Made by a program: the position numbers and the translations under genes. From contig WGMN01000001.1 in assembly GCA_016125035.1 (NCBI GenBank), positions 193,526-257,525 of the forward strand: a stretch of 64,000 bases of DNA, given 5' to 3'. The notes beneath the pieces were generated by a model. It saw only the letters and a program-made list of their open reading frames with translations. It did not search any database and had not been told where the DNA came from. Shown piece after piece: positions 3,310 through 57,449 of the stretch. How positions within the stretch are numbered: position 1 is the first letter of the stretch; every line of letters starts with the position of its first letter. The DNA is from Pseudomonadota bacterium. GTDB taxonomy: Bacteria; Pseudomonadota; Alphaproteobacteria; UBA2136; UBA6156.

Positions 3310-4929
3310 TTAGACCGTGGGCTTGGTTTTGGCATAGAGCTCGACCGGGTAGGCTTCGTCGTGGTTCCAGACCGGCAGTTTTTCGAAGTTATGCTCGTGG
3401 GGGGGAGAGCTGGTGTTGGTCCACTCCAGCGTGATGCCGCCCCAGGGGTTGGCGCCAGCCTTTTTGCCGTACTTGCGGCTGTAGAGGATGTTGATGACCA
3501 AGAGCAGCTGCGTGGTGCCGAAGATAAAGGCGCCCACCGAGCAGAGCATGTTGAGGTCGGCGTACACGGGGTTGTAGTCGGCGATGCGCCGCGGCATGCC
3601 CATCATGCCCAAAAAGTGCATGGGGAAGAAAGTGATGTTGACCGAGATGAACGACAGCCAGAAGTGCCAGCGGCCGATACGCTCGGACAGCAGGCGGCCG
3701 GACATTTTGGGGAACCAGTGGTAGATGGCCGCCATGATGCCGAAGTAGCTGCCGGTGACGAACACGTAGTGGATGTGCGCCACCACGTAGTAGGTGTCTT
3801 GCATCATGTAATCGACCGGAGCCGAGGCCAGCACCACGCCGGAGAGCCCGCCGATGGTGAAGAGGATGACGAAGCCGATGGCGAATTTCATCGCCGTGGT
3901 GAAGGCGATGGAACCGCCCCACATGGTGGCCATCCAGTTAAACACCTTGATGCCGGTGGGCACGGCGATGAACATGGTCATGATCATGAAGCCCATCTGC
4001 GCCGGGATGCTCATGCCCACGGAGTACATGTGGTGGGCCCAGACCATTTGCCCGAGCACCGCGATGGCCACCAGCGCCCACACCATGCTGTGGTAGCCGA
4101 AGGGCGGTTTGCGGCTGTGGGTGGAGATGATGTCGGACACCATACCGAAGACCGGGAGGATCATGATGTAGACCGCCGGGTGGGAGTAGAACCAGAAGAT
4201 GTGCTGGAAGAGCACAGGGTCGCCACCGCCGGCGGGGTTGAAGAAGGCGGTGCCGAAGTTACGATCGCACAGCAGCATGGTGACCGCGCCGGCGAGCACC
4301 GGGGTGGCCACCAGTTGCAGCCAGGCGGTGATGAGCATGGCCCAGGGGAACAACGGCATTTTGAACAGCGACATGCCAGGTGCACGCATGTTGAGGATGG
4401 TGACGATGAAGTTGATGGCGCCCAGGATGGAGCTGGCACCGGCGAGGTGGACGGCGAGGATCCACATGTCCATGCCCGCACCGGGCGAGAAGGCGGCGGA
4501 GGTGAGCGGAGGGTAGACCGTCCAGCCCGCGGCGTCGGACCCGCCGGGGACGAACAGGCTGCCGAGCATGAGCATGGCGGAGAACGGCATGATCCAGAAC
4601 GACCAGTTGTTGAGCCGGGGGAAGGCCATGTCTGGCGAGCCTATCATGATGGGGACGAAGTAGTTGCCAAAGCCGATGAGCCCCGGGATGATGGCGAAGA
4701 AGATCATGAACGTGGCGTGCATGGCCGTCATCTGGTTGAAGAACGCGCCGTCGACGAACTGGTAGCCGGGCTCGGCGAGCTCCGCCCGGATGACCAGCGC
4801 CATGCAGCCGGCCAGGAAGAAGAAGATCAGCGACGACATCATGTACATGCGGCCGATGTCTTTGTGGTTAACGGTGGTGAGGTAATACATGAAACCTTTG
4901 CGGGGAGTGGCGTGGGCGGCGGTGGCCAT
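3310..4929 (-). CDS. coxA: Cytochrome c oxidase subunit I (aa3-type).
   Basis: The protein is 539 aa with 12 TM helices. It carries the canonical heme/CuB ligand motifs, including WAHHMY, HHMF and GMPRR. Confidence 0.95.
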   Translation of the reverse strand: MATAAHATPRKGFMYYLTTVNHKDIGRMYMMSSLIFFFLAGCMALVIRAELAEPGYQFVDGAFFNQMTAMHATFMIFFAIIPGLIGFGNYFVPIMIGSPDMAFPRLNNWSFWIMPFSAMLMLGSLFVPGGSDAAGWTVYPPLTSAAFSPGAGMDMWILAVHLAGASSILGAINFIVTILNMRAPGMSLFKMPLFPWAMLITAWLQLVATPVLAGAVTMLLCDRNFGTAFFNPAGGGDPVLFQHIFWFYSHPAVYIMILPVFGMVSDIISTHSRKPPFGYHSMVWALVAIAVLGQMVWAHHMYSVGMSIPAQMGFMIMTMFIAVPTGIKVFNWMATMWGGSIAFTTAMKFAIGFVILFTIGGLSGVVLASAPVDYMMQDTYYVVAHIHYVFVTGSYFGIMAAIYHWFPKMSGRLLSERIGRWHFWLSFISVNITFFPMHFLGMMGMPRRIADYNPVYADLNMLCSVGAFIFGTTQLLLVINILYSRKYGKKAGANPWGGITLEWTNTSSPPHEHNFEKLPVWNHDEAYPVELYAKTKPTV

Positions 4930-9783: not shown

Positions 9784-11523
9784 TTAACGGTGCCATTCTT
9801 CCGACAGGGTTTGCCACGATTGGCCCTGGACGTGGATGGCGTGCCAGAAGGCCAGCAGGGTGAGGCTGAGCGCCAGGTTGGCGGACTTGGCGTGGGCGAG
9901 GTTGCCGAGCAGTTTTTCAGCCGCGTGGGGGTGGAGGATTTGGGTGAGGATGGGGCTGGTTTGCCAGAGCGCGGCGAGGCGCTCTTTTTTATGGGCGAGG
10001 AAGCTGCCCACCGCCACCGAGAAGCCCTGCTTGCGCGCCCAGGCGAGTTGCGACTGGCCTTGCGCGGCGAGGTGCTGGCGCAGGATGAGCTTGCCGGCAT
10101 CTGGGCGGACTTTGAATTCATCCGGCAGCGAGAAGGCCCATGCGGCGAAGGTGTCATCCAGGTAGGGCACGCGGCCTTCGATGCCGTGAGCCATGGTGGT
10201 GCGGTCTAGCTTTAAGAGCAGGTCGTTGGGGAGCCAGCCCGCGACATCCTGCCCCTGGCGGCTTTGTAGTTTGGTGAGGCCGCGGGTGGGCCAGGGTTGC
10301 TCTGGCGGCGGAGGCGTGGAGACGTTGATCTGGAACAGCGACTGGAAGGGCGCGGCATCGCCGCTGCGGCGGGCTTTGAAGTAGCTGAGCAGGTTGGGCT
10401 TTTTGCGGTAGGCCGGGTAGCCGGCGAGCATTTCATCACCGCCCTCCCCCGAGAGCAGGATCTTCACGTCCTCACGTGCGCGGGCGGTGAGCTTGAGCAG
10501 TGGCAGGGCGGCGTAGTCTGTCGCCAGGTCATCCATCGCCCAGGCGAGTTTGGGGAGCATTGGCCAGAAGTCGGATTCATCATAGGGCACGGTGGTGTGG
10601 GTGGCGCCGATGCTTTGCGCGAACGAGGCGGCGATATCGGCCTCATTCACCCCGCCTGCCACCATGATGCGCGCGGTGTAGGCGTGCACCGGGGCGCCTA
10701 AGCTCCGCATGGCGAGGGTGACGGCAGTGCTATCCAGCCCGCCGGAGAGCAGGATGCCGTAGGGGACATCGGCCTGCAGGTGGCGGCTGACTGCGGCGGT
10801 GAGCTGCTCGTTGAAATCGTGATTCGTTATTCGTGATTCGTTATTCGTAACTGGGTTGAGGGGGGGCAATTTACGGCGGCGCATGATGATCTTGCCGTGG
10901 CGGACGGTGAGCCTCTCGCCCGGCAAAAGGCGGTGGATGTTTTTGAACAGCGTTTGGCTGCCGGTGGAGTAGTGCCGGTTGAGCAGTTGCGGCAGCACCG
11001 TGAGGTTGGGCTCGGCGCGCACCCAGCCGGCGGCGAGGATGGCTTTGGGCTCGGACGCGAAAATGAAACCGAGATTGGTTTCGGCATAATAAAGCGGTTT
11101 GATGCCGAAGGGATCGGTGGCGAGGTAAAGCGTTTCTGTTGCGCCATCGGCCAGGGCCAGGGCGTACATGCCCTGTAGCTCTTCCAGCGCCCCTTCCCCG
11201 ATTTGGGTGAAGCGGTGCAGGGGTGGTTCGCTATCCGACGCGGTGTGCAGGCGGGCGCCGTTTTGGGTGGCGAGGGTTTGCAGCGCTTTGTAGTTGTAGA
11301 TTTCGCCGTTCACCACGATGGCGGTTTTGCCTGCGACAAGGGGTTGGCGGCCGCCCGAGATATCGATGATGGAAAGGCGGCGGTGGGCGAGGCCGAGGCT
11401 GGCGTGGGTGAAGGTGCCTTCGCCATCTGGCCCGCGGTGGGCCAGCGCGGCGAGCAAAGGGGCCAGATGTTTGGCCGTGGCCTTTTGGCTTTTGATGAGA
11501 CTGACGCCGGCGATTCCGCACAT
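9784..11523 (-). CDS. asnB: Asparagine synthetase (glutamine-hydrolysing).
   Basis: It begins MCGIAG, the N-terminal Cys nucleophile. It has the glutamine amidotransferase class-II domain plus the synthetase SGGLDS motif. An embedded heptamer element encodes TNNESRITNHD. Confidence 0.85.
   Translation of the reverse strand: MCGIAGVSLIKSQKATAKHLAPLLAALAHRGPDGEGTFTHASLGLAHRRLSIIDISGGRQPLVAGKTAIVVNGEIYNYKALQTLATQNGARLHTASDSEPPLHRFTQIGEGALEELQGMYALALADGATETLYLATDPFGIKPLYYAETNLGFIFASEPKAILAAGWVRAEPNLTVLPQLLNRHYSTGSQTLFKNIHRLLPGERLTVRHGKIIMRRRKLPPLNPVTNNESRITNHDFNEQLTAAVSRHLQADVPYGILLSGGLDSTAVTLAMRSLGAPVHAYTARIMVAGGVNEADIAASFAQSIGATHTTVPYDESDFWPMLPKLAWAMDDLATDYAALPLLKLTARAREDVKILLSGEGGDEMLAGYPAYRKKPNLLSYFKARRSGDAAPFQSLFQINVSTPPPPEQPWPTRGLTKLQSRQGQDVAGWLPNDLLLKLDRTTMAHGIEGRVPYLDDTFAAWAFSLPDEFKVRPDAGKLILRQHLAAQGQSQLAWARKQGFSVAVGSFLAHKKERLAALWQTSPILTQILHPHAAEKLLGNLAHAKSANLALSLTLLAFWHAIHVQGQSWQTLSEEWHR
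10818..10852. repeat. 35-nt heptamer-periodic element (CGTGATT/CGTTATT-type, five units) inside the asnB CDS, in frame.
   Basis: The units are cgtgatt cgttatt cgtgatt cgttatt cgtaact. On the coding (minus) strand it translates to ...TNNESRITNHD... without a frameshift. Confidence 0.75.
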
Positions 11524-11556
11524 ACCCAACGGTATAGGCGGAATCGGCGCGGACGT

Positions 11557-12912
11557 CTAGCGGCTGAAGCTGCGGCGCGGGCGACCGCCGAAGGAGCGGT
11601 TGCCGCCACCGCCGTGGCTGTTGCCGTGGGTGCGCCCGCCCTGGTGTTGGCCCTGGCCGCCGCCGCTGTTGCCGCCGTGGTTACCCTGCGAACGTGCCGG
11701 GCGTTGGCCGCGCTGTTTGGGGCGGCCCGGAGGCGCCTCGGCGGAGACGATGCGGCGGAAATCGGCCTCGGTGAAGGAGGATTCCAGGCCTTCTATCTTG
11801 CTGAAGGTGAAGGGTTTGCCCAGGCGTTTTTCGATATCGCGCAGCAAGGGGAGATCGGGCGGGGAGACCAGCGAGATGGCCACGCCCACCGCGCCGCCGC
11901 GGCCGGTGCGGCCGATGCGGTGGGTGTAGTCTTCCGCCAGGTTGGGAAGATCATAATTGATGACGTGGGAGAGGTTCTTCACGTCGAGCCCGCGTGCGGC
12001 GACGTCGGTGGCCACCAGCACCTTGAGGCGCCCGGCGTGCAGACTATCCAACGTGCGCTTGCGTTGGTTCTGCTTCATGTCGCCGTGCAGGGCGCCGGTG
12101 GAGAAGCCTTGCTGTTGCAGCTTTTTGGCCAGCCTATCCGCCCCGTGCTTGGTGGCGGAGAAGATGATGACCTGGTCGACATCGTTTTGCTTGAGCAGGT
12201 GCGAGAGCATGTTCTGCTTATGGTCGGTGTTATCCACATGGAAGACGTGCTGGGTGATGGCCGAGTGGTCTTGCTTGGCGGCGGCGAGCTGGGCGCGGTG
12301 CGGATTTTGCAGGGTGCGCGAGGCGACCTTTTCCACCTCGGGGCTGAAAGTTGCCGAGAACAGCAGGATTTGCGGGCGCGAGGGCAGCGCGGCGATGATC
12401 TTTTCCACCGGTTTGAGGAAGCCCATGTCGAGCATGCGGTCGGCTTCGTCGAGCACCAGGACTTCCACGCGGGAGAAATCCACGCGCCGTTCGTTCATGT
12501 GGTCGATGAGGCGGCCGGGGGTGGCGACGAGGATATCCAGCGGCCGGGAGAGCAACTGGTACTGCGGGCCGTAGCCCACCCCGCCGATGACCACCCCGCT
12601 GCGCACGGAGAGGTGTTTGCCGAAGAGTTTGAGGTTATCCATGCATTGCTGGGCAAGTTCCCGCGTAGGCGTAAGCACCAGCACGCGCGGGCCGTGGCCC
12701 TGGCGGGCGCTGGGGCCGGAGACGACGCGTTGCAGGCACGGCAGCACAAAAGCCGCCGTTTTGCCGGTGCCGGTTTGCGCGCAGGCCATGACATCCTTGC
12801 CCTGCAAAATGGCCGGGATGGTTTGCGCCTGGATGGGGCTGGGCGCGGTGAAGCCGGCATCTTGAATAGCCTGGAGGATGGCAGGCTTGAGGTTAAACGA
12901 CGTGAAGCTCAT
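11557..12912 (-). CDS. rhlE: ATP-dependent DEAD-box RNA helicase (RhlE-like) with an RGG/Gly-rich C-terminal tail.
   Basis: The Q motif, Walker A AQTGTGKT, DEAD, SAT and HRIGRTGR motifs are all present. The C-terminus is low-complexity and rich in G, R, N and Q. Confidence 0.9.
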   Translation of the reverse strand: MSFTSFNLKPAILQAIQDAGFTAPSPIQAQTIPAILQGKDVMACAQTGTGKTAAFVLPCLQRVVSGPSARQGHGPRVLVLTPTRELAQQCMDNLKLFGKHLSVRSGVVIGGVGYGPQYQLLSRPLDILVATPGRLIDHMNERRVDFSRVEVLVLDEADRMLDMGFLKPVEKIIAALPSRPQILLFSATFSPEVEKVASRTLQNPHRAQLAAAKQDHSAITQHVFHVDNTDHKQNMLSHLLKQNDVDQVIIFSATKHGADRLAKKLQQQGFSTGALHGDMKQNQRKRTLDSLHAGRLKVLVATDVAARGLDVKNLSHVINYDLPNLAEDYTHRIGRTGRGGAVGVAISLVSPPDLPLLRDIEKRLGKPFTFSKIEGLESSFTEADFRRIVSAEAPPGRPKQRGQRPARSQGNHGGNSGGGQGQHQGGRTHGNSHGGGGNRSFGGRPRRSFSR

Positions 12913-13172
12913 GGCTATGAGACCTTATGTTGGTGCGGCGCTCTGGCCCAAAGATGGCCATTGGCTGCGGGTTGTGGGCGCCTGGACCTTACGTAAGGTT
13001 CTTGAAGTGCTGGCGGTGATATGGGGGGCGAAGCGGCAAAAGGCAAGCCCCATATGCATTTATTTGAAAAAATGTGTGTTTTAGTAAGAAATTTGCCCCC
13101 CAGGGGCTGGCCTTTTGGCTGCGCGTGGGCTACAAGGGCGCCGACAACAGCCAGACTTAGGATTGAAAGACC

Positions 13173-14993
13173 ATGCGCGAAAAGACCCGGAACATTGCCA
13201 TTATCGCCCACGTGGACCATGGGAAGACCACGCTTGTGGACGCGCTGCTGAAGCAGACCGGCACCTTTGCCAGCAACGAAAAAGTGGCCGAGCGCGCCAT
13301 GGACAGCAACGACATTGAGCGTGAGCGCGGCATTACCATTTTGGCCAAGACCACCAGCATTATGTACAAGGATTACCGCATTAATGTGGTGGACACCCCC
13401 GGGCACGCCGACTTTGGCGGCGAGGTGGAGCGCATTTTGGGCATGGTGGATGGTGCCGTGCTGCTGGTGGACGCCGCCGAAGGCCCCATGCCGCAGACCA
13501 AATTTGTGCTGGGCAAAGCCTTGCAGCTGGGCCTGAAGCCGATTTTGGTGGTGAACAAGATTGACCGCGGCGACGCGCGCCCCGACGAAGTGGTGAACGA
13601 GACCTTTGACCTGTTTGACAGCCTGGGCGCCGACCACGACCAGCTGGACTTCCCCATTTTATACGCCGTGGGCCGCGATGGCTGGGTGAGCAAGGATGCG
13701 AAGGTGAAGGGAGATAACTGCTTCCCCCTATTGGACCTGGTGCTGGAGCATGTGCAGGCGCCGCAGGGCGATGCCACCGCGCCGTTTAAGATGCTGGTGA
13801 GCATGGTGGAGCGTAATGAGTTTGTGGGCCGGATCGTGACCGGGCGCATCTTCTCCGGCAGTGTGAAGAAGAACATGCCGATTAAGGCCATGGACCGCAA
13901 CGGCGCGGATATTGACCGCGGCAAGGTGGTGCAAATTTTCGGCTTCCAGGGGTTGAAGAAGGTGCCGGTGGACGAAGCCAGCGTGGGCGACATTGTGGCC
14001 ATTGCCGGGCTTGGCAACGCCTACGTGAGCCACACGCTGTGCGACACGAGCGTGAATGAGCCCCTGCCCGCTGTGGCGATTGACCCGCCGACCTTGATGA
14101 TGACCTTTAGCGTGAACGACAGCCCCCTTTCCGGACAGGAAGGCAAAAAGCTGACCAGCCGCGAAATTGGTGCGCGTTTGTTCGCCGAAGCCGAGACCAA
14201 CGTGGGGTTGATTGTGGAGCAGGGTTCCACCACCGAGAGCTTTAAGGTGATGGGGCGCGGTGAGTTGCACCTGGGGGTGCTTATTGAGACCATGCGCCGC
14301 GAGGGGTTTGAGCTGAGCATTTCCCGCCCGGAGACCATCTTCCGCGAAGAGAACGGCGTGAAGCTGGAGCCTTATGAAGATATCATCGTGGACGTGGATG
14401 AGGCCTACAGCGGTGTGGTGATGGAGAAAATGGGCCTGCGCCGCGCCGAGATGGTGAATATGATCGCCGACCACCATGGTAAGCAGCGCCTTATCTTCGT
14501 GGGGCCGAGCCGCGGGATGATCGGTTACCGCAGCGAGTTTTTGACCGACACGCGGGGCACCGGTGTGTTGACGCGCCAGTTTAAGGAATATGGGCCGCTG
14601 AAGCAGCTGAGCGGAGGGCGCCGCAACGGCGTGCTGGTGAGCATGGCCAATGGGGTGAGCACGGCGTACATTTTGAACGAACTGGAAGCGCGCGGGACGT
14701 TGTTTATTGGCGACGTGGTGACCGTTTACGATGGGATGATTGTGGGCGAAAACAGCCGCGAGGATGATTTGGAAGTGAACCCCACGCACGCCAAGAAGCT
14801 CTCCAACGTGCGTGCCGCGGGTAAGGACGACGCGATTAAGCTGACGCCGCCCAGGGACATTACGCTGGAGTACGCGCTGACCTATATTCAGGACGACGAG
14901 CTGGTGGAGGTGACGCCGAAGAACATCCGCCTGCGCAAGCGCGGGTTGGATGCGCATAGCCGCAAGAAGTACCGCCGGGAAGCGGGTAATTAA
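13173..14993 (+). CDS. typA: Translational GTPase BipA/TypA.
   Basis: The N-terminus is [19 protein letters not shown], followed by [14 protein letters not shown]. The length is 606 aa. Confidence 0.95.
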
Positions 14994-15003
14994 GGAAGGG
15001 TTG

Positions 15004-15046
15004 AGGGGGCTGGGGTGCGCCAAAAGTGCGCCGCAGCCCCCTTCTC
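15004..15046 (+). terminator. Likely rho-independent terminator of typA.
   Basis: A GC-rich hairpin, gggggctggggtgcgcc...gcgccgcagccccc, is followed by a T-rich tract. Confidence 0.55.
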
Positions 15047-15099
15047 TGCGCTTAAAAACTTGACGAAACCTTTGGTTATGGCGATAACCGGGCCCGTGC

Positions 15100-15187
15100 G
15101 GAAGTGTGGCCGAGTGGTTGAAGGCGCACGCTTGGAAAGCGTGTATGGGGCAACTCATCGCAGGTTCGAATCCTGTCACTTCCGCCA
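15100..15187 (+). tRNA. tRNA-Ser (GGA anticodon), with a long variable arm and encoded CCA.
   Basis: The sequence GGAAGTGTGGCCGAGTGGTTGAAGGCGCACGCTTGGAAAGCGTG...CAGGTTCGAATCCTGTCACTTCCGCCA was folded by eye. The D-arm, anticodon arm, long variable arm and T-arm all form. Confidence 0.85.
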
Positions 15188-15225
15188 GTTAAATGAGGGA
15201 ATGGCCAGTTTTGGCTTGCACGCCT

Positions 15226-15316
15226 TAAGGCGCACGCTGGACTCTTAATTGTCCACCTTCGGTGGAACAGCGTGCATGGGCAACTTATCGCAGGTTCGGA
15301 CTCTGCCACTCCGCCA
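15226..15316 (+). pseudogene. Partial duplicate of the tRNA-Ser 3' portion (anticodon stem to CCA), with a 31-nt hairpin-containing insertion replacing the anticodon loop. It is probably an att-site remnant or pseudo-tRNA.
   Basis: It aligns with tRNA-Ser over ggcgcacgct...gcgtg(c/t)atggg(g)caact(c/t)atcgcaggttcg...ccgcca. The 5' acceptor and D-arm are absent and the T-stem is mutated. Confidence 0.6.
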
Positions 15317-15340
15317 GTTGCAATTGGGAGATGCGCCAAA

Positions 15341-15736
15341 ATGATGCACGTTCAGTACAAACTGGATAAGTCACCCTTGCATGGCATTGGTTTGTTTGCC
15401 GCCCAGCCCATTAAGCAAGGGGCGCTCATCTATTCAGCCAGCCCCATTCTTGATGTGAATATTAGCTCGGAGCAATTCGAGAGCCTGACAGAGGCAGAGA
15501 AAAGTGAAGTTCGCTTTTGGGGATTCTGGATTGAAGACGAACAGGTTTGGCATGTTGATTTTGATGTCTCTAAATTTATTAACCATGACCGCAACTCTAC
15601 CGTAACCCAAGATGGGGATCATAAAGACGCCTACCTGGTTGCGACCCGTGACATTAAAAGCGGTGAGGAACTTACCCAGAATTATCTGGAATTTGAGACT
15701 GAGGCGGATTTACGCCAACGCGGAATCTCGGACTAG
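15341..15736 (+). CDS. SET-domain protein, a putative protein-lysine methyltransferase (131 aa). The gene is low-GC and likely horizontally acquired.
   Basis: GIGLFA, FINHD(R)N and ELTQNY motifs are characteristic of SET domains. Local GC is about 45-48% against about 65% in the flanks. It lies immediately downstream of tRNA-Ser and its fragment duplicate. Confidence 0.7.
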   Translation: MMHVQYKLDKSPLHGIGLFAAQPIKQGALIYSASPILDVNISSEQFESLTEAEKSEVRFWGFWIEDEQVWHVDFDVSKFINHDRNSTVTQDGDHKDAYLVATRDIKSGEELTQNYLEFETEADLRQRGISD

Positions 15737-15842
15737 GAGTTTCGGCAAACCGTGTTTTACGGCTGCTTGATTAGCAACCACTAGAGTTGCGGGTTGTGTA
15801 CTGCATACGATAGGCTGGTGCCCAGGAACGGGAGAAAACGCC

Positions 15843-17381
15843 ATGTCGGTTGACCAGTTGCACGATAAGCTTGAAGTGTTTGCCGGATATTTGTGGGGTT
15901 GGCCGATGCTGGTGTTGCTGGTGGCCACCGGGGTTTGGTTTACCTTTGTGTTGAAGGGGCTGCAATTCCGCCTGTTGTTCCCCGCGTTGTATGACGCCTT
16001 TGGGCCCGACGGTGGCAAGAGCCGCGGTGAGGGTACCATCAGCAACCGTGCGGCGCTGCTGACCGCGCTGGCGGCAACCGTGGGCACCGGCAACATTGCC
16101 GGGGTGGCCACCGCCATTGCCATGGGCGGGCCGGGTGCGGTGTTCTGGATGTGGTTGAGCGGGCTGCTGGGCATGGCGGTGAAATTCAGCGAAGTGTTGC
16201 TGGGCTTGCATTACCGCGTGAGGGAGGCCGACGGCACCTACCGCGGCGGGCCGATGTACTATTTGAAACAGGGGGTGGGCTCGCCGTTTCTGGCGGGGGT
16301 GTTTGCCACCTTCCTTGCTTTTGCGACGCTGAGCATTGGCGGGATGATCCAGAACAACTCTATTGCCGATGCGCTGAACGCGACCTTTGGCTGGAACGCC
16401 ACCCTGGTGGGTGGGGTGGTGGCGATTGCCGCGGCGGTGATTATGTTTGGTGGGTTGAAGAGCATCGCCAACACCGCCAATGTGCTGGTGCCGGTGATGA
16501 TCATCGCCTACACCGTTGCGGCAGTGATGATCTTGCTGGCCAATGCCAGTTATGTGCCTGAGGTGTTTGGCATGATCTTCCACGATGCCTTCAGCGGCAG
16601 CGCGGCGGCCGGCGGTTTTGCCGGCGTGGCAATGGCCAGCGCGGTGCGCTTTGGCCTTTCACGCGGGGTGTTCTCTAACGAGTCCGGGCAGGGCTCGGCG
16701 CCGATTGTGGCGGCCACCGCCAAGACGCGGCACCCGGCCGAGCAGGCGTTGATCTCTATGACGCAGACGTTCATCGACACCATTGTGGTGTGCACGATGA
16801 CCGCGCTGGTGATTCTGGTGAGTGGCGCGTGGCAGAGTGGTGCGGCGCAAAGCGCCGGGGCAAGTTTGACCACGCTGGCGTTCAACACCGGTTTGGGGCA
16901 GCTGAGCTTTTACGGTGTGGGTGTGGGGGCGGCGATTGTGAGTGTGAGCATTTTGATGTTTGCCTTCACCACCATTTTGGGCTGGGGCTTTTATGGCCAG
17001 CAGGCGGCAGTTTATTTGCTTGGCCCCAAGGTGGCCAAGCCTTATCTGGCGGTGTTTTTGGTGTTCACCTTTTTGGGGGCGTACCTGATTGATTACTCCA
17101 GCGCCGGGGCCGCCGTGCGGCTGCTGTGGGTAAGCGCCGACATTACCGTGGGTTTGACCATGCTGCCGAACCTTTACGCGCTGTGGATGTTGAGCGGGAA
17201 GATACGCGCGCTGACGGAGGATTACCTGAGTGCGATCAAGACCGGGCGGGCGTTTGCGGTGGTGCCTTTTGTGAACGAGGTGCGGGTGAGCGCGCGACCG
17301 GCAAAAGGTGGCAAAACGCTGCCAATGACGCGCAAGAAAATGGTGGTGCGGCGGCCGAAGGCGGCAAAACGACGGCGCTAG
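15843..17381 (+). CDS. agcS: Sodium:alanine/glycine symporter (AGCS family amino-acid carrier).
   Basis: The protein is 512 aa and polytopic. The N-terminal region and the GGPGA(V)FWMW motif are typical of the family. Confidence 0.85.
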   Translation: MSVDQLHDKLEVFAGYLWGWPMLVLLVATGVWFTFVLKGLQFRLLFPALYDAFGPDGGKSRGEGTISNRAALLTALAATVGTGNIAGVATAIAMGGPGAVFWMWLSGLLGMAVKFSEVLLGLHYRVREADGTYRGGPMYYLKQGVGSPFLAGVFATFLAFATLSIGGMIQNNSIADALNATFGWNATLVGGVVAIAAAVIMFGGLKSIANTANVLVPVMIIAYTVAAVMILLANASYVPEVFGMIFHDAFSGSAAAGGFAGVAMASAVRFGLSRGVFSNESGQGSAPIVAATAKTRHPAEQALISMTQTFIDTIVVCTMTALVILVSGAWQSGAAQSAGASLTTLAFNTGLGQLSFYGVGVGAAIVSVSILMFAFTTILGWGFYGQQAAVYLLGPKVAKPYLAVFLVFTFLGAYLIDYSSAGAAVRLLWVSADITVGLTMLPNLYALWMLSGKIRALTEDYLSAIKTGRAFAVVPFVNEVRVSARPAKGGKTLPMTRKKMVVRRPKAAKRRR

Positions 17382-17417
17382 CTGCAAGCACAAGGGGCCG
17401 GATGGCCCCTTTGCTTT

Positions 17418-19814
17418 TTAGCGGCGGCGGTTGAACTCCAGCTTGGGGAAGCTATCGACCTGGATGACGTCGAGGCGGGCTTGCTCGGCGGCGAGCAGGG
17501 CGCGGCCTTCCTCTACCGACAGCAGGCCTTTTTCCACTGCGGCGTGGGCCAGCTCTTCCGCCGGGGCCTTGTGCAGGTAGCCTTCCTTGATGGCCTCGGC
17601 GACCTTTTTGCGCGAGGCGGCGGTGGCCACGGTGCGCAGGTGTGCGTCTTCCAGCGCGGCCAGGCCGGGCTGGACGTGGGCGGGCAGGTAGACATCGGGG
17701 GAGAGGGCGGTGCGCAGGCCGGTGGATTCATCCAGCAGGGTGCTGACGACCTTATCGGTGAGCCTGTCGGTAGGCAGCTGCGCATGGCGGCCGAGCGGGA
17801 AGATGACCAGCCGCGCCAGCCATGCCGCCGGACGGTTGGGGAGGTTGCGCAGCACGCCGTTAAGCGCCTGTTCGACCTCCACCCTTGCCATGGTGAGGAC
17901 GTAGGTAAGCAGGGCCGCCTGGTTGTGCGGAGAGCCGGCACTGGCGTGCTGCTTGAGCGTGGCCGAGGCGATGTAGAGCCATGCAAAGGCATCGGCGTAG
18001 CGGCCGGAGAGGTACTCTTTGCGCTTCATCGCGCCGCCGAGCGTGACCAGGCCGACATCCGCCAGGAAGGCGAAGGCCGCGCTGTAGCGCGACAGGCGCG
18101 CGTGCGGGCTGTGCGCCGGGATGAGCGCCAGCACCAGGGCGCGTACGGCGTTGCGGATGACGTGACCGATGTGGCCGAAGAAGGCTTTATCGAAACCTTT
18201 GAGGTCTTTGGCGGCCACTGCGGCGACCTCGGCCTGCAGGTAAGGGTGGCAGCGAATGGCGCCCTGGCCGAAGACGATGAGCGAGCGCGAGAGGATGTTG
18301 GCGCCTTCCACCGTGATACCGATGGGGATGGAGGCGTAAGGGCGCGCCAGGATGTTGCGCGGGCCGCGTTGGATGGAAGCGCCGGCCATGACGTCCATGG
18401 CGTGGTTGACCGACGCGCGCATGCCCTCGGTAAGGTAGGCCTTGGCGATGGCCGAAGCCACCGCTGGGTGGGTTCCGGCATCCACCGCGCCGGCGGTGAG
18501 GTTGCGCGTGGCTGTCATGTAAAAAGCGTTGGCGGCGAGGCGGGCGAGGCGCTCGCGCACGCCCTCGAACTTGCCGATGGGCAGGTTGAACTGCTCGCGC
18601 ACCGAGGCATAGGCGGCGGCGGCACGCACCGACACCTGCGCAGCACCCACAGAAAGCGAAGGCAGTGAGATACCGCGGCCGGCGGCGAGACATTCCATGA
18701 GCATGCGCCAGCCGTTGCCGACCTGCTCTCTTCCGCCAATGACGACATCCATGGGGACGAAGACGTTGGTGCCGGAGACCGGGCCGTTCATGAACGGGAT
18801 GCCCATGGGATCGTGTCGTGAGCCAATGACCAGGCCGGGGGTTTTGCGCGGCAGCAGGGCGCAGGTGATGCCGATATCGTCCTTCTCGCCGAGCAGGTGT
18901 TTGGGGTCGTACAGGTGGAAGGCCAGGCCGACCACGGTGGCGATGGGGGCGAGCGTGATGTAGCGCTTGTTGAAGGTGAGCGAGATACCCATCACCTCTT
19001 TGCCTTGCCACTTGCCCATGGTGACGATACCGAAGCTTTGGCCGTTGGCGGCGTCGGACCCGGCGGTGGGTTCGGTGAGGGCGAAGCAGGGAATTTCCTC
19101 CCCATTGGCCAGGCGCGGCAGGTAGTGGTTGCGCTGGCCGGTGGTGCCGTAGCGCAGCAGAAGCTCGCCCGGCCCAAGAGAGTTGGGCACCATGACGGTG
19201 ACCGCCGTGGCCACGCTGCGGCTGGCGATGCGGGTGATGACCGCGGCATGGGCGGCGGCGGAGAAGCCCAGACCGCCGTGCTCGACCGGGATGATCATGC
19301 CGAGGAACTTGTGCTTTTTGATGAAGGCCCAGACCTTGGGCGAGAGATCGCGCTTTTGGAAAATTTCATCATCGTTGAGCATTTTGCACAGCGCTTCAGT
19401 GGGGCCGGCGAGGAAGGCCTGCTCTTCTTCAGTAAGCGGTTTGACGGTGAACTTTTTCAGCTGCGACCAATCTGGCTTGCCGGAGAAGAGTTCTTGCTCG
19501 AAGAACACACCGCCGGCTTCCAGCGCAATACGTTCGGTCTCGCCGATGGTGGGCATGGATTTGGCGGCAAGGCGCATGAGCGGCTTGGTGAGGCTGTGGC
19601 GGCGCAGCAGCGGGCAGCCGGTGATGACCGCCACCGCGGCGAAAAGACCAAGCCCGAGGTTGAAGGCCGGTGTGGCAATGCCCTGCAGGTGGCCATACCA
19701 GGCAAACAGCGCAATGGCGCCCGCCGCCACCCAGGCAAGGTAAGCGCGCCCGAAGAACGCCAGCAGGAGGAACGCCAGCGGGGCGAAGAGCAGGATGGTG
19801 TGCGGGGCTATCAT
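17418..19814 (-). CDS. fadE: Acyl-CoA dehydrogenase, FadE-type (long form, 798 aa).
   Basis: N-terminal TM helices are followed by FEQELFSGKPDW...CFALTEPTAGSDA. It is collinear with E. coli FadE. Confidence 0.85.
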   Translation of the reverse strand: MIAPHTILLFAPLAFLLLAFFGRAYLAWVAAGAIALFAWYGHLQGIATPAFNLGLGLFAAVAVITGCPLLRRHSLTKPLMRLAAKSMPTIGETERIALEAGGVFFEQELFSGKPDWSQLKKFTVKPLTEEEQAFLAGPTEALCKMLNDDEIFQKRDLSPKVWAFIKKHKFLGMIIPVEHGGLGFSAAAHAAVITRIASRSVATAVTVMVPNSLGPGELLLRYGTTGQRNHYLPRLANGEEIPCFALTEPTAGSDAANGQSFGIVTMGKWQGKEVMGISLTFNKRYITLAPIATVVGLAFHLYDPKHLLGEKDDIGITCALLPRKTPGLVIGSRHDPMGIPFMNGPVSGTNVFVPMDVVIGGREQVGNGWRMLMECLAAGRGISLPSLSVGAAQVSVRAAAAYASVREQFNLPIGKFEGVRERLARLAANAFYMTATRNLTAGAVDAGTHPAVASAIAKAYLTEGMRASVNHAMDVMAGASIQRGPRNILARPYASIPIGITVEGANILSRSLIVFGQGAIRCHPYLQAEVAAVAAKDLKGFDKAFFGHIGHVIRNAVRALVLALIPAHSPHARLSRYSAAFAFLADVGLVTLGGAMKRKEYLSGRYADAFAWLYIASATLKQHASAGSPHNQAALLTYVLTMARVEVEQALNGVLRNLPNRPAAWLARLVIFPLGRHAQLPTDRLTDKVVSTLLDESTGLRTALSPDVYLPAHVQPGLAALEDAHLRTVATAASRKKVAEAIKEGYLHKAPAEELAHAAVEKGLLSVEEGRALLAAEQARLDVIQVDSFPKLEFNRRR

Positions 19815-19835
19815 GGTTTTGTTTCCTTTGATTAA

Positions 19836-22157
19836 CTAGTTGCGCAGGGGCTTGCCGGTGCGCAGCAGGTGGGCGATGCGCGCGCGGGTGCCAGCGGTTT
19901 TGGTCAGCGCCACCAGGCCTTCGCGCTCCAGCTTGAGCACTTGGGCTTCGGTGAGGGGAACAAGAGGGTCGGCGTGCTCGGCCCCGGTGAGGGTGCGTGC
20001 AAGCTGCGTGCCGACCACCACGTCGTGCTTGGTGGCCAGGCCCTTTTGCGCGAAATCATGCAGCGCCATTTTGAGCGCGGCAAAACCGGAAGGGCCGGGC
20101 AGGGTGAAGGTAGGGGTTTGAACCGATTTGAAATCTGCCGCCATGGAGAGCGCGTAGGACTTGGCGGTGGCGAGCAGGCGTTCCGGGTTCATCACCACCA
20201 CGTCATCGGGGGTGAGGAAGTGCAGGGAGCGGGCTTCTTCCGCTGATTTGGCGACTTTGGCGGTGGCGATGGTCTCGAACGCATGGGCTACTGCCGGCAT
20301 GGGGCCCCTGCCCTTGCCGTATTTGGCGGCGCGGGCCAGCAGCTCTTTACAGCCGCCCCAGCCGGGGATGATGCCGACGCCACCTTCCACCAGGCCGATG
20401 TAGCTTTCCGCACTGGCCACGATGCGGTGGGCGTGCATGAGGATCTCTGCCCCGCCGCCGAGCGCCATGCCGGACGGCGCGGCAACCACCGGGAAAGGTG
20501 CGTACTTGAGGGCGAGGTAAGCGTTCTGCCCGTGTTTGAGGATGAGGTTGATGAGGAAGAACAGCCGCAGCTTGGAGGTGATGAGTAGCATGAGGATGTT
20601 GGCGCCGACCGAGAAGTTGCGGCCCTCGTTATAAATAACCAGGCCCTTGAAGCCGAGCGCGGGCAGCTTGCGCACTGCTTTGTTGACCATGCAGATGATG
20701 AAGGGGTTGAGCGCGTTCATTTTAGAGTGGAACTCCAGGCAGGCGATGCCGTCCCCCAAGTCCCACACGCTGGCGGAGATGTTTTTGAACAGCGGCTTGG
20801 CGCGGCGCTTGATATCCTCCAGCAGCAGCACGCCGGGCGCGCGCGGGATGGGTTGGTAGCTGCCGGTAAGCGTGAGGAACTGTTTGATGCCACCTTCCAC
20901 CCGGTAGAGCGGGCGGCCCGCAGCGGCGCGCAGAATGGCGGGGGTGGGCAGGCCCATGGTTTTGAACTCGGCTTCTACCCAGGCGGTGCCGAGTTTATCG
21001 ATGAGCTCGAAGGGGCCGTACTTCCAACCGAAACCCAGACGCATGGCGCGGTCTATATGCTCGATGTTCTCGGCGATCTCTCCCACCAGTGAGGCGGCAT
21101 AGGCCAGCGTACCGAGAATGACGGTGTGGGCGTAGCGGCCCTCGGCGCTATCGTGCATGACCAGGCCCTTAAGCCCGCGCTTTTTGGCGGCGAGCACGGC
21201 CGGCACCCTGGGGCGCGCGGCGGGCATGTGGCTGCCGGTGGAAAGGTTCATGACCAGCTTGTTCTTCTTTTCATCCAGCTTGTAGAAGCCGCCGCCGTTC
21301 TTGCGGCCGGTGAGGCCGGATTTGATCATCTGCGAGAGCAGCGCCGGGGCCGGGCCGAGCTTGCGGAAGGGGTCGGAGGCGGGCAGCGCGGTGTTCATGC
21401 TTTCCAGGATGTGCGGCATGAGGTCGAGGCCGACCAGATCCAGCAGGCCGAAGACGCCGGTTTTGGGCACGCCCATGGGTTTGGAGAGTACGGCGTCGGC
21501 TTCTTCCACCCCCACGCCTTGCTTAATGGCGTGGACCACCGCGCTGTGCATCCAGTAGGTGCCGATGCGGTTGGCGATGAAGCCGGGGGTATCGAAGCAC
21601 GGCACCACGCTTTTGCCGAGTGCGTGGTCGGCGAAGGTGGTGATGGCGGTGAGTGCGGCGGGGTCGGTTTCCGGCGAGCTGACCACTTCCAAGAGACGCA
21701 TATAGCGCGGCGGGTTGAAGAAGTGGGTGATGAGGAAGTGCGCGCGGAAGTCCTTCGGCAGGCCCTTGAGAAGTTGCGCCAGCGGCAAGGTGGAAGTGTT
21801 GGACGACACCACGGCGCCGGGCTTGCGGTGCTTGGCGATGGTTTTATAGAGCGATTGCTTGATGTCGAGGCGCTCGATGACGGCCTCGATGATCCAGTCG
21901 CATTCCGCCAGCAGGGGCATGTCATCTTCGGTGTTGGCGGGGGTGATGAGCTTGGCCGCTTTGGGCGACATGAGCGGCGCGGGGTTGGTCTTCTTCAATT
22001 TTTCAATCGCGCCGGCGGCGATGGCGTTGCGGCTGGTGGCACCTTTGGGCACGATATCCATGAGGATGACCGGCACGCCGGCGTTGGCGATGTGCGCGGC
22101 AATGCCCGCGCCCATGACGCCGGCGCCGATGACCGCGACGCGTTGGATGGGCTTCAT
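19836..22157 (-). CDS. fadN: Bifunctional 3-hydroxyacyl-CoA dehydrogenase / enoyl-CoA hydratase. The dehydrogenase domain is N-terminal, a FadN-like architecture.
   Basis: The N-terminal Rossmann motif is VAVIGAGVMGAGIA. The C-terminal crotonase fold is LGGGAEILMHAHRIVA...EGGVGIIPGWGG. The start MKPIQR was chosen, and it overlaps the fadA stop. Confidence 0.85.
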   Translation of the reverse strand: MKPIQRVAVIGAGVMGAGIAAHIANAGVPVILMDIVPKGATSRNAIAAGAIEKLKKTNPAPLMSPKAAKLITPANTEDDMPLLAECDWIIEAVIERLDIKQSLYKTIAKHRKPGAVVSSNTSTLPLAQLLKGLPKDFRAHFLITHFFNPPRYMRLLEVVSSPETDPAALTAITTFADHALGKSVVPCFDTPGFIANRIGTYWMHSAVVHAIKQGVGVEEADAVLSKPMGVPKTGVFGLLDLVGLDLMPHILESMNTALPASDPFRKLGPAPALLSQMIKSGLTGRKNGGGFYKLDEKKNKLVMNLSTGSHMPAARPRVPAVLAAKKRGLKGLVMHDSAEGRYAHTVILGTLAYAASLVGEIAENIEHIDRAMRLGFGWKYGPFELIDKLGTAWVEAEFKTMGLPTPAILRAAAGRPLYRVEGGIKQFLTLTGSYQPIPRAPGVLLLEDIKRRAKPLFKNISASVWDLGDGIACLEFHSKMNALNPFIICMVNKAVRKLPALGFKGLVIYNEGRNFSVGANILMLLITSKLRLFFLINLILKHGQNAYLALKYAPFPVVAAPSGMALGGGAEILMHAHRIVASAESYIGLVEGGVGIIPGWGGCKELLARAAKYGKGRGPMPAVAHAFETIATAKVAKSAEEARSLHFLTPDDVVVMNPERLLATAKSYALSMAADFKSVQTPTFTLPGPSGFAALKMALHDFAQKGLATKHDVVVGTQLARTLTGAEHADPLVPLTEAQVLKLEREGLVALTKTAGTRARIAHLLRTGKPLRN

Positions 22158-23293
22158 TATATGCGCTCCAGAATGGTGGCGATGCCCTGGCCGCCGCCGA
22201 TGCATTGGGTGGCCAGCGCGTAGCGTTTTTTGGTGCGGGCGAGCAGCGCGGCGGCCTTGCCGGTGATGCGCGCGCCGGTGGCGCCGAGCGGGTGGCCGAG
22301 CGCAATGGCGCCGCCATCGATATTGGTAACTTTAAGATCCACATCGAGTTCCTCGATGACCGCGAGGGACTGAGCGGCGAAGGCTTCGTTGAGCTCGATT
22401 ACGTCCATGTCGGTGAGTTTGAGGCCGGCGCGCTCCAGCGCTTTTTGGGTGGAGATGACCGGGCCCAGGCCCATGGTTTGCGGCGCGCAGCCGGAGATGG
22501 CCACCGAGACGATGCGGGCAAGAATGGGCAGCTTGTGCTTTTTGGCAAATTCCTCTGACGTGACCAGCACGGCGGCGGCGCCGTCGGTAAGCGGCGAAGA
22601 GGTGCCCGCGGTGACGGTGCCTTTGGCGTCGAAGGCCGGTTTGAGGGTGGCCAGGGTTTCGGCCGTGGTACCGGCGCGGATGCAGCCGTCTTCGCTGACG
22701 GTGCCGGTGGGGGTTTCGATGGGGACGATCTCGTCTTTAAGCAGGCCGGCTTTTTGTGCAGCGGCGGCTTTTTTGTGGCTTTCCACCGCGAAGCCGTCTT
22801 GCACCTCGCGGTTCAGTTTATACATTTTGGCCAGGTTCTCGGCGGTTTCGCCCATGCCGATGTAGGCCTGGGGGAACTCTTTATAAAGCTTGGGGTGCGG
22901 CAGCGGGTTGAAGCCGCCCAGCGGCACGCGGGACATACTTTCCACCCCCGCGCAGATGAAGGCCTCGCCCGCGCCTATGGTGATGGCGCCGGCTGCGATG
23001 TGGATGGCCTGCATGGACGACCCGCAGAAGCGGTTGACGGTGAGGCCGCCGACGCTTTGCGGCAGGCCAGCAAGGAAACCAATGATGCGCGCAACGTTGA
23101 AGCCCTGTTCGGCCTCGGGGAAAGCACAGCCGACGATGAGGTCTTCCACCAGTTCCGGCTTGATTTTGGTGCGCTTGACCAGGGCTTTGACCACCTGGGC
23201 GGCCAGTTCGTCTGGCCGGGTGCCCGCCAGGGCGCCCTTGGAGGCAGGGGTGAACGGCGAGCGCGCGTAGCCTGCGATGACGACGTTCTTCAT
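22157..23293 (-). CDS. fadA: Acetyl-CoA C-acyltransferase (3-ketoacyl-CoA thiolase).
   Basis: The thiolase signatures NRFCGSSMQA (active-site Cys) and GGGQG(I) are present. An SD, aaaaggaga, precedes the ATG. Confidence 0.9.
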   Translation of the reverse strand: MKNVVIAGYARSPFTPASKGALAGTRPDELAAQVVKALVKRTKIKPELVEDLIVGCAFPEAEQGFNVARIIGFLAGLPQSVGGLTVNRFCGSSMQAIHIAAGAITIGAGEAFICAGVESMSRVPLGGFNPLPHPKLYKEFPQAYIGMGETAENLAKMYKLNREVQDGFAVESHKKAAAAQKAGLLKDEIVPIETPTGTVSEDGCIRAGTTAETLATLKPAFDAKGTVTAGTSSPLTDGAAAVLVTSEEFAKKHKLPILARIVSVAISGCAPQTMGLGPVISTQKALERAGLKLTDMDVIELNEAFAAQSLAVIEELDVDLKVTNIDGGAIALGHPLGATGARITGKAAALLARTKKRYALATQCIGGGQGIATILERI

Positions 23294-35218: not shown

Positions 35219-35988
35219 GGGCGGATTGTGGCGGGTAAGGAATGAGTTGTCTAGGAAGAGGTGCAAAAAGGGCTGCAAAAGGCGGCGATGAGCGGCAAAA
35301 AAACGGCTGGGCAAAGCTCCGCCCCACCATGGGGCCCCTGAAGATGTGTTATTATGTTGCCGTTTGGCACTTTAAATGTGAGGGTGGGCCTCATCGCGTT
35401 CGGTTCGCATAAAAAAATGATCTGGTCGCTTTCAGGCCGGCTTTGCCAGGCGGCAAAGTGAGACAGCGGGCGCAACGCCCTTGTGAGAGGCCGGGAGACG
35501 GCCGGGAAAATGCTTCAGGTGAGTCTGGGTCTGGTGGTTAAATGCTTAAGATCACACGTAAAATCAGGTAAAATGATTGTTGTTATGTTTCTGAGATTTA
35601 CATCTCGGGAAACAGCATGACGGGGCTGAAAAGCTTTGGCAAGGGCCCCTTTTAACGGCAAAACGCTGCTGTGGTGCGCAAGGCACGGCTGCGGCTGCCG
35701 CAAAGGCTGTGAAACCATGTTATTTTGTATTCGACCTGCATACCAAATAGGCAGGTCGGACAGCTGCTTCAAAGCTGAGCAAACCGGATAACTTCATTAT
35801 GAAATCGTGTGTTATGCGAACATCCTCGTTTTTACGTTCAGGGACACCCCAGAAGGGTGGCAGAGGGGGTCCCGGAGGGCCTTGAGAGGCTTTTTGCGTG
35901 GAACAAAGGCTATGTGAGTATTTGTTTACTTATATCTCCTTTGCCGCCAAAATCAGCGGTATTGGCGCGATGGGCGGCTTAAGGTAGG
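35219..35988. other. A 770-bp region without convincing ORFs and with lower GC. It may be a long 5' leader or an ncRNA-containing region upstream of the GT4 gene.
   Basis: The ORF track has only short, low-complexity candidates here. The region has several stem-loop-capable GC-rich segments and AT-rich stretches. Confidence 0.4.
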
Positions 35989-57008: not shown

Positions 57009-57011
57009 GAA

Positions 57012-57046
57012 CGTAACCCGTAACCCGTGGCCCGTAACCCGTTGGA
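57012..57046. repeat. 35-nt heptamer-periodic element (CGTAACC-type, five units).
   Basis: The sequence reads cgtaacc cgtaacc cgtggcc cgtaacc cgttgga, nearly identical to the copy at 9136-9170. It lies 3 nt after the AI-2E stop and 10 nt before the four-helix-bundle gene start. Confidence 0.7.
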
Positions 57047-57056
57047 GCTTTGAAGG

Positions 57057-57449
57057 ATGGCAGGTGAAAAATTAGGGTTTGCCAAGAACTTTGAAGATTT
57101 ACTGGTTTTTAAGCGGGCTTACAAAACTTCATTGGAAATACACCGCACAACTCTGACCTTTCCGGCCGCGGAACAACGCGGACTTGGTGAACAGATGCGG
57201 CGTGCCAGCAAAAGTATATGTGCCAACCTTGCAGAAGAGTTCGGTAAGGGGTCGGACAGTGCAGAGATGCGGCGGTTTACGCGCATTGGCTTAGGCTCTA
57301 GCGAAGAGATGAGGGTTTGGTTGCGTTACTGCCTGGACTTAAGACTTATTAATAAGACTGAGTGGCAAATGTGGCGCGACGAATACCACGCTATAAGCCA
57401 AATGTTACAAAAACTTATTGGGGCTATCAAAGCACCGGCTAAAAAATAG
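57057..57449 (+). CDS. Four-helix-bundle protein (TIGR02436 / 23S rRNA intervening-sequence protein family; Avd-like).
   Basis: The N-terminus has FEDLLVFKRAY, followed by RRASKSICANLAEEFGKGS, the typical family pattern. GC is lower than in the flanks. Confidence 0.7.
   Translation: MAGEKLGFAKNFEDLLVFKRAYKTSLEIHRTTLTFPAAEQRGLGEQMRRASKSICANLAEEFGKGSDSAEMRRFTRIGLGSSEEMRVWLRYCLDLRLINKTEWQMWRDEYHAISQMLQKLIGAIKAPAKK

Follow-up and report, generated by a model that had tools for sequence, protein, structure and literature searches.

The present analysis indicates that an intact tRNA-Ser(GGA) gene is followed by two elements of separate origin, namely, a pseudogene or fragment of tRNA-Ser and a single SET-domain gene acquired at a synteny breakpoint; we hold this reading at a probability of roughly 60%. 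Both components are of known kinds, the one a fragment of a tRNA gene and the other an acquired gene next to a tRNA. The original prediction had tied them together, taking the tRNA duplication for the footprint of an integrase-mediated insertion of the SET gene and the whole for a decayed mini-island. Our findings do not bear this out. The tRNA copy does not bound a SET insert as an att repeat would, and the locus amounts to a common kind of hot spot beside a tRNA gene rather than a defined mini-island. The window denotes here the whole stretch of 64,000 nt that was analyzed, and its coordinates are used throughout for the following features.

13173..14993, + strand: typA/bipA translational GTPase, the native left flank (Pfam GTP_EFTU, BipA_C and others).
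15004..15042, + strand: GC-rich hairpin 3' of typA, a likely terminator (inverted repeat).
15060..15088, + strand: putative tRNA-Ser promoter, TTGACG, 17-nt spacer, GATAAC (sequence inspection).
15100..15187, + strand: functional tRNA-Ser(GGA), class II, CCA encoded (ARAGORN, Rfam RF00005).
15198..15319, + strand: degenerate tRNA-Ser copy, a pseudo-tRNA or gene fragment (local alignment to the tRNA).
15326..15331, + strand: putative ribosome-binding site GGGAGA, 9 nt ahead of the SET start codon (sequence inspection).
15341..15736, + strand: minimal SET-domain protein gene, 131 aa, of foreign composition (Pfam SET).
15737..15797, + strand: spacer from the SET stop codon to the native region upstream of the symporter, within which the insert has its right edge.
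15798..15842, + strand: native symporter upstream region (TGCATACGATA ... AACGGGAGA), conserved in the related contig L057.
15843..17381, + strand: sodium:alanine symporter, the native right flank (Pfam Na_Ala_symp, 3.7e-121).

The tRNA-Ser(GGA) gene was rightly recognized as intact at the outset. ARAGORN calls it at 15100-15187 on the + strand, Rfam RF00005 scores it at 61.3 bits against a gathering score of 29, and its MFE fold is the cloverleaf. Its orthologue in the related contigs L060 and L061 differs at 9 of the 91 compared positions, 3 nt past the CCA end included. Upstream, the inverted repeat that probably terminates typA has 15-nt arms (87% complementary) and a 9-nt loop, with TTCTCT following it. 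The TTGACG box and an xATAAx box stand in an identical register upstream of the tRNA-Ser of L060; the putative promoter in the window scores below the threshold of the consensus scan. The region is base-for-base the same in an independent Logan assembly (L056, run SRR10063242), and an assembly artefact is thereby ruled out.

The second, tRNA-like stretch is equally real. Local alignment of 15191-15340 to the tRNA-Ser gene gives a score of 67, where 1000 dinucleotide shuffles reach a mean of 15.5 and a maximum of 28. The spacings first reported for it also hold, with 38 nt from the end of the tRNA to 15226 and 24 nt from the CCA of the copy (15316) to the ATG at 15341. Its description as a partial copy of the 3' two-thirds of the tRNA stands insofar as the copy is genuine, but it is interrupted by an insertion and has a weak likeness to the 5' part as well. 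Specifically, 15227-15238 is an exact 12-mer of tRNA-Ser positions 22-33, and the 57 nt at 15263-15319 correspond to positions 34-91, with matches in 50 of the 59 columns aligned. The anticodon loop of the copy holds 24 additional nucleotides (15239-15262), placed between tRNA positions 33 and 34. The 5' part (15198-15226) resembles the tRNA weakly, through GGAATGGCCAG at 15199-15209. The T-loop reads TTCGGAC against TTCGAAT in tRNA-Ser, and one nucleotide is deleted from the 3' strand of the acceptor stem. The copy extends 3 nt past CCA, and the G after CCA is common to the copy and its own tRNA. As for the insertion itself, it is flanked by TGGA repeats (15237-15240 and 15263-15266), and together with the bases that follow it forms a perfect 6-bp hairpin, TCCACC-TTC-GGTGGA.

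The copy is a non-functional, decaying duplicate of tRNA-Ser and not a canonical tRNA. It is not called as a tRNA by ARAGORN at default or 80% thresholds, nor by Rfam RF00005 at E ≤ 10. ARAGORN reports it only when the threshold is lowered to 70%, and then with an "intron" of 39 nt and an acceptor stem that is poor and mismatched. Removing the 24-nt insertion or allowing an intron did not rescue it as a tRNA at normal thresholds. Furthermore, its fold is no more stable than those of shuffled sequences (z from -0.5 to -2.0).

The prediction of a SET-domain gene at 15341-15736 was sound. The ORF matches Pfam SET (PF00856) with an E value of 4.4e-13 (50 bits, cutoff 22.4) over profile positions 1-104 of 105, and its start codon agrees with those of the homologues (MxHxxYKL). 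A family alignment of 33 members from different phyla has 41 invariant columns, and the window protein keeps all 41, including HGIGLF (residues 14-19), FINH (79-82), and ELTQNY (110-115). These motifs, i.e., the AdoMet-binding GxG, the NH, and the catalytic Tyr, align to RSPIHGRGLF, RFINH, and ELTYDY of MLL1, whose SET domain is the best sequence match of the protein in the PDB (3.8e-5). The AlphaFold model is weak (pLDDT 62.7); the top Foldseek matches of this low-confidence model in the PDB are all SET/PR domains (MLL1, SETD8, S. pombe Set7, and vSET), with a TM of only ~0.46. Since the family-invariant residues are kept, the gene is probably functional, and its product is a candidate methyltransferase, an activity that we infer from the sequence. 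The GGGAGA hexamer ahead of the gene also occurs upstream of the symporter start.

The SET gene was very probably acquired horizontally, as originally proposed. Three observations support this: a foreign third-position composition, its absence at the matching positions of the only related contigs detected, and homologues in unrelated low-GC lineages. The ORF has a GC content of 0.47 against 0.62 for the window, and no other 400-nt stretch in the 64 kb is as low. The comparison of GC and codon usage suggested with the prediction gave a clear outcome. GC3 is 0.519, beneath every host window, where 936 windows of 131 codons from 22 host genes have a mean of 0.79, an sd of 0.051, and a minimum of 0.634 (z = -5.3). 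An NCBI MAG labelled "Proteobacteria bacterium" encodes the same protein; identity drops to 77% in the next best homologue, which lies on a contig of ~38% GC (L053). Patescibacteria make up the great majority of the species-representative genomes with SET relatives, the others being a few Proteobacteria and Bdellovibrionales, and a neighbour-joining tree of the SET proteins mixes phyla and does not track taxonomy. Similarity to other SET loci begins at codon 1 and is confined to the coding sequence; BLASTN against all fetched loci detected no homology in the flanks. Because SET genes are low in GC in nearly all loci examined (3-10 GC points under the surrounding locus in nearly all 47, among L001-L048), part of the deficit may be a property of the family, but the GC3 gap here is far larger.

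The foreign DNA is essentially the SET ORF alone. The 45 nt at 15798-15842 are conserved with positions 5960-6000 of L057, directly upstream of the symporter start in that contig. As the native symporter upstream region is thus conserved to 15798, the foreign DNA must lie within roughly 15320-15797, i.e., ~0.45 kb with at most 24 nt upstream of the ORF and ~60 nt downstream. Of the 106-nt spacer between the SET stop codon and the symporter start, the part at 15737..15797 shows no similarity to the tRNA, to other SET loci, or to L057. The symporter gene itself has a GC3 of 0.79, and fadE, fadB, and fadA come next. We also considered an integron gene cassette and rejected it: 15737-15842 folds no better than shuffled sequences on either strand, and no RYYYAAC/GTTRRRY core sites are present. 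In L053, which carries the closest SET homologue, a repeat of ~130 nt occurs three times (360-490, 1024-1150, and 2152-2254), one copy following every gene, so that SET is flanked by it on either side. As an attC site this repeat was likewise rejected, for it has no attC-like hairpin.

Comparison with relatives places the SET gene exactly at the junction of two blocks that are non-adjacent in related contigs. Few relatives of the host lineage have been sampled. On the left, the best typA relatives are those of L060 and L061 (92% aa identity), followed by others at ≤87%. The L060 block matches the window in a further gene (72%), a DEAD-box helicase (84%), typA (92%), and tRNA-Ser(GGA). A convergent Na/H exchanger follows this tRNA-Ser after ~200 nt, and SET is absent. 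On the right, the best symporter relatives are 62-66% identical, and L057 carries symporter, fadE, fadB, and fadA at 61-73% aa identity to the window. In this contig, from a sample shared with L061, a histidine kinase precedes the symporter, and there is no SET gene there. L057, L060, and L061 derive from the runs SRR5221245/6. The window is thus syntenic with L060 over 10828-15187 and with L057 over 15843-23293. Since the two blocks are joined in this genome only, the 3' side of tRNA-Ser is a rearrangement breakpoint.

A comparison with an empty tRNA-Ser site in related genomes, which had also been proposed, could be made in part. L060 and L061 indeed have the tRNA-Ser without SET, but their right flank differs, and no clean empty site (typA, tRNA-Ser, and symporter without SET) was found among the typA relatives and the symporter relatives searched, the latter ≤66% identical. 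Linkage of typA to tRNA-Ser occurs only in L060 and L061; in the remaining typA relatives (83-87% identical), typA is not followed by a tRNA-Ser. The tRNA-Ser side is therefore compared with one informative relative, whose right flank is different (the Na/H exchanger).

This relative bears directly on the relation between the fragment and the SET gene. Without SET, L060 (and also L061) has a decayed tRNA-Ser fragment of its own, ~30-95 nt past its tRNA (L060:5215-5282). It runs from the D-loop to the T-stem with a score of 32, matched by 0 of 1000 shuffles. As a SET-less relative carries its own fragment, the fragment is not a footprint of the SET insertion, and the two are separable. Furthermore, each fragment is nearer to the tRNA of its own genome (67 versus 40 for the window and 32 versus 22 for L060) and shares lineage-specific bases with it. 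Compared directly, the window copy and the L060 fragment have almost nothing in common except TCGCAGGTTC (30 of 1000 shuffles attain their score of 23), and the intergenic DNA of the two is otherwise unalignable. The similarity to the own tRNA and the unalignable intergenic DNA together mean that the fragments are younger than the split of the lineages or have been homogenized with the tRNA. Such a pattern fits recurrent events at this tRNA-Ser, whether repeated integrations, tandem duplications, or gene conversion.

We therefore favor a history of independent steps. The tRNA copy would have arisen within the lineage, from a partial or tandem duplication or else as a fragment displaced by an integration that has since vanished, and would then have decayed through the anticodon-loop insertion and damage to the T-loop and acceptor stem. 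Independently, SET (~0.45 kb) would have entered between the pseudo-tRNA and the conserved native sequence upstream of the symporter, by an illegitimate or rearrangement-associated route at the tRNA-adjacent breakpoint. The order of these events is our inference. Once in place, the gene would be transcribed from the tRNA-Ser promoter and translated from GGGAGA. A consensus scan detected nothing like a terminator at 15187-15341, nor a promoter-like site within the 24 nt that precede SET; judged from this lack of consensus signals only, read-through from the tRNA-Ser promoter probably accounts for SET transcription.

The possibility that a tyrosine-integrase element carrying SET integrated at tRNA-Ser and then decayed, leaving the tRNA 3' duplication as an att scar, deserves careful weighing, and we consider it unlikely. 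tRNA-targeted integration places an island between a regenerated tRNA and a displaced fragment (Islander, PMC4383910), and element integration is known to give rise to tRNA fragments (PMC9897764, PMC4383910). The regenerated tRNA and a displaced, direct-orientation 3' fragment of it are found here (15100-15187; 15227-15319), and the fragment spans the anticodon stem to the 3' end plus 3 nt past CCA. That such a fragment stands 24 nt from a compositionally foreign gene is suggestive, as this adjacency could be what remains of tandem islands after deletion of the distal repeat. Besides, fragments appear to have arisen or been renewed recently in both lineages, as would be expected at a recurrent integration site. 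However, cargo is missing between tRNA and fragment; only 38 nt separate them, and SET lies outside the pair, downstream of the fragment. A decayed island would thus need the order of tRNA, a deleted island 2, the fragment, an island 1 with SET, and a lost distal fragment, or else the use of the fragment as a secondary attB. No such distal fragment was detected after SET (the spacer scores 13, reached by 811 of 1000 shuffles), and no further tRNA-Ser fragment occurs elsewhere in the 64-kb window. The prediction itself had noted that no integrase remains, and none is present among the genes at 10828-23293 (helicase, typA, SET, symporter, and fadE/B/A), all of which, except SET, are housekeeping genes syntenic with relatives. 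The other SET loci speak in the same direction: in the six where a tRNA precedes SET, no repeat of the tRNA 3' end follows the gene. IMG/VR viral contigs and PHROGs yielded no relatives of SET, and PADLOC gave no match. With SET outside the tRNA/copy pair, no third repeat, no integrase, and a fragment in L060 without SET, the copy does not qualify as an att boundary, and foreign DNA limited to ~0.45 kb does not amount to a defined mini-island. A metagenome scan for further loci with a tRNA-Ser and a fragment, by the pattern TCGCAGGTTCGAATCCTG, N90-118, TCGCAGGTTC, gave ordinary tandem Lys, Pro, Arg, and Leu tRNA pairs only and no tRNA-Ser, and carries no weight either way.

A different function for the copy would be that of an RNA, namely, a tRNA-mimic leader, e.g., one processed by RNase P/RNase Z, or a stabilizer of the SET mRNA, its similarity to the tRNA being kept by selection. 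The position of the copy immediately 5' of the SET ribosome-binding site, with no terminator between tRNA and SET, would suit such a role, and so would its retention of the lineage-specific bases of its own tRNA. In addition, a same-strand tRNA lies 19-67 nt upstream of 5 of 52 homologous SET genes (Gly in L006, Tyr in L014, Arg in L019, and Gln in L020 and L038) as against 9 of 452 other genes of these loci, a modest enrichment. Restricted to the 41 SET genes recognized by the automated gene call, of which 4 count, this adjacency gives a Fisher p of ~0.02, ignoring phylogeny. Yet the copy does not score as a tRNA, and its fold has no more than shuffle-like stability. Decay has gone much further in the L060 fragment, which is followed by no gene on that strand and has next to nothing in common with the window copy apart from the motif named above; two sequences, those of the window and L060, are too few for covariation. 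A functional RNA is therefore, in our view, very improbable. About as little credit is due to the notion that SET is ancestral to the lineage and was lost in relatives, its low GC being a family-specific composition and not a mark of transfer. The GC deficit of SET genes in nearly all loci and the availability of a single related lineage for comparison would accommodate it. In contrast, a GC3 of 0.52 lies below the host minimum of 0.634 for any 131-codon window, the best homologue is just 77% identical on a ~38% GC contig, the gene sits exactly at the synteny breakpoint, and the tree mixes phyla. Thus, a tRNA-Ser fragment next to a separately acquired SET gene remains our preferred reading.

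The tRNA adjacency of SET genes also raises a broader conjecture, to which we give little credence. The SET family might spread across phyla (Patescibacteria and Proteobacteria) as a promoterless single-gene unit that prefers tRNA-downstream sites and uses the strong tRNA promoters, tRNA-like remnants then serving as processing or stability leaders. If true, this would amount to an integrase-free gene hitch-hiking on tRNA transcription units. As a separate observation, in L019 an exact 23-nt direct repeat of the tRNA-Lys 5' end (3676-3698 and 3760-3782) constitutes a tRNA fragment between tRNA-Lys and the tRNA-Arg that precedes SET.

The original prediction further regarded the SET protein as a eukaryote-like, effector-type protein, and here it fails. 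The homologues form a bacterial clade, and a review has argued that SET genes are native to bacteria (PMC3980110). Against the NCBIfam equivalog for AnkI/LegAS4 (NF043024), the window protein scores 14.2 bits where the cutoff is 550, and a Dot/Icm-type secreted SET effector (AnkI/LegAS4/RomA) was rejected on this score. The family is 60-77% identical across Patescibacteria classes and Proteobacteria. Such extreme conservation suggests, as a lead only, that the family may have a conserved bacterial target and may have undergone repeated inter-phylum transfer.

Taken as a whole, the locus exemplifies two well-known processes of tRNA hot spots, i.e., the decay of a tRNA fragment and the arrival, at a synteny breakpoint, of one foreign gene. 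It is also a warning that the presence of a tRNA fragment beside a gene of odd GC is not enough to define an island. The window has two further low-GC patches, at 35315-35988 and 57009-57325 (~0.49-0.51 GC), the former being a ~670-nt intergenic region between divergent genes. No Rfam match there passed the gathering threshold.

Among known systems, the effectors RomA/LegAS4 of Legionella and NUE of Chlamydia share the SET catalytic domain with the window protein. They differ in that the window protein is without ankyrin or extra domains, its host is an environmental proteobacterial MAG, and nothing points to its secretion. The bacterial minimal SET proteins (PF00856; PMC3980110) are closer, being single domains of ~130 aa with the GxG, NH, and ELxxxY motifs and a patchy distribution in free-living and environmental bacteria. 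In contrast to these, the window sub-family is unusually conserved (the 41 invariant columns of 33 members) and concentrated in Patescibacteria.

With the displaced att fragments of the Islander type (PMC4383910, PMC9897764), the copy shares its direct orientation, its nature as a partial 3' tRNA copy not recognized as a canonical tRNA, and its location at a site where relatives differ in gene content. The differences here are the mere 38 nt between tRNA and fragment, the missing integrase, the 24-nt interruption, and a foreign gene that lies beyond the fragment. Lastly, the thrU-tyrU-glyT-thrT-tufB operon of E. coli gives rise to a tRNA-mRNA co-transcript. Unlike tufB, the SET gene is a recent foreign insert and not a conserved operon member, and its co-transcription with the tRNA is putative; the two arrangements are alike in having a same-strand protein gene directly downstream of the tRNA or tRNAs, with no terminator between.
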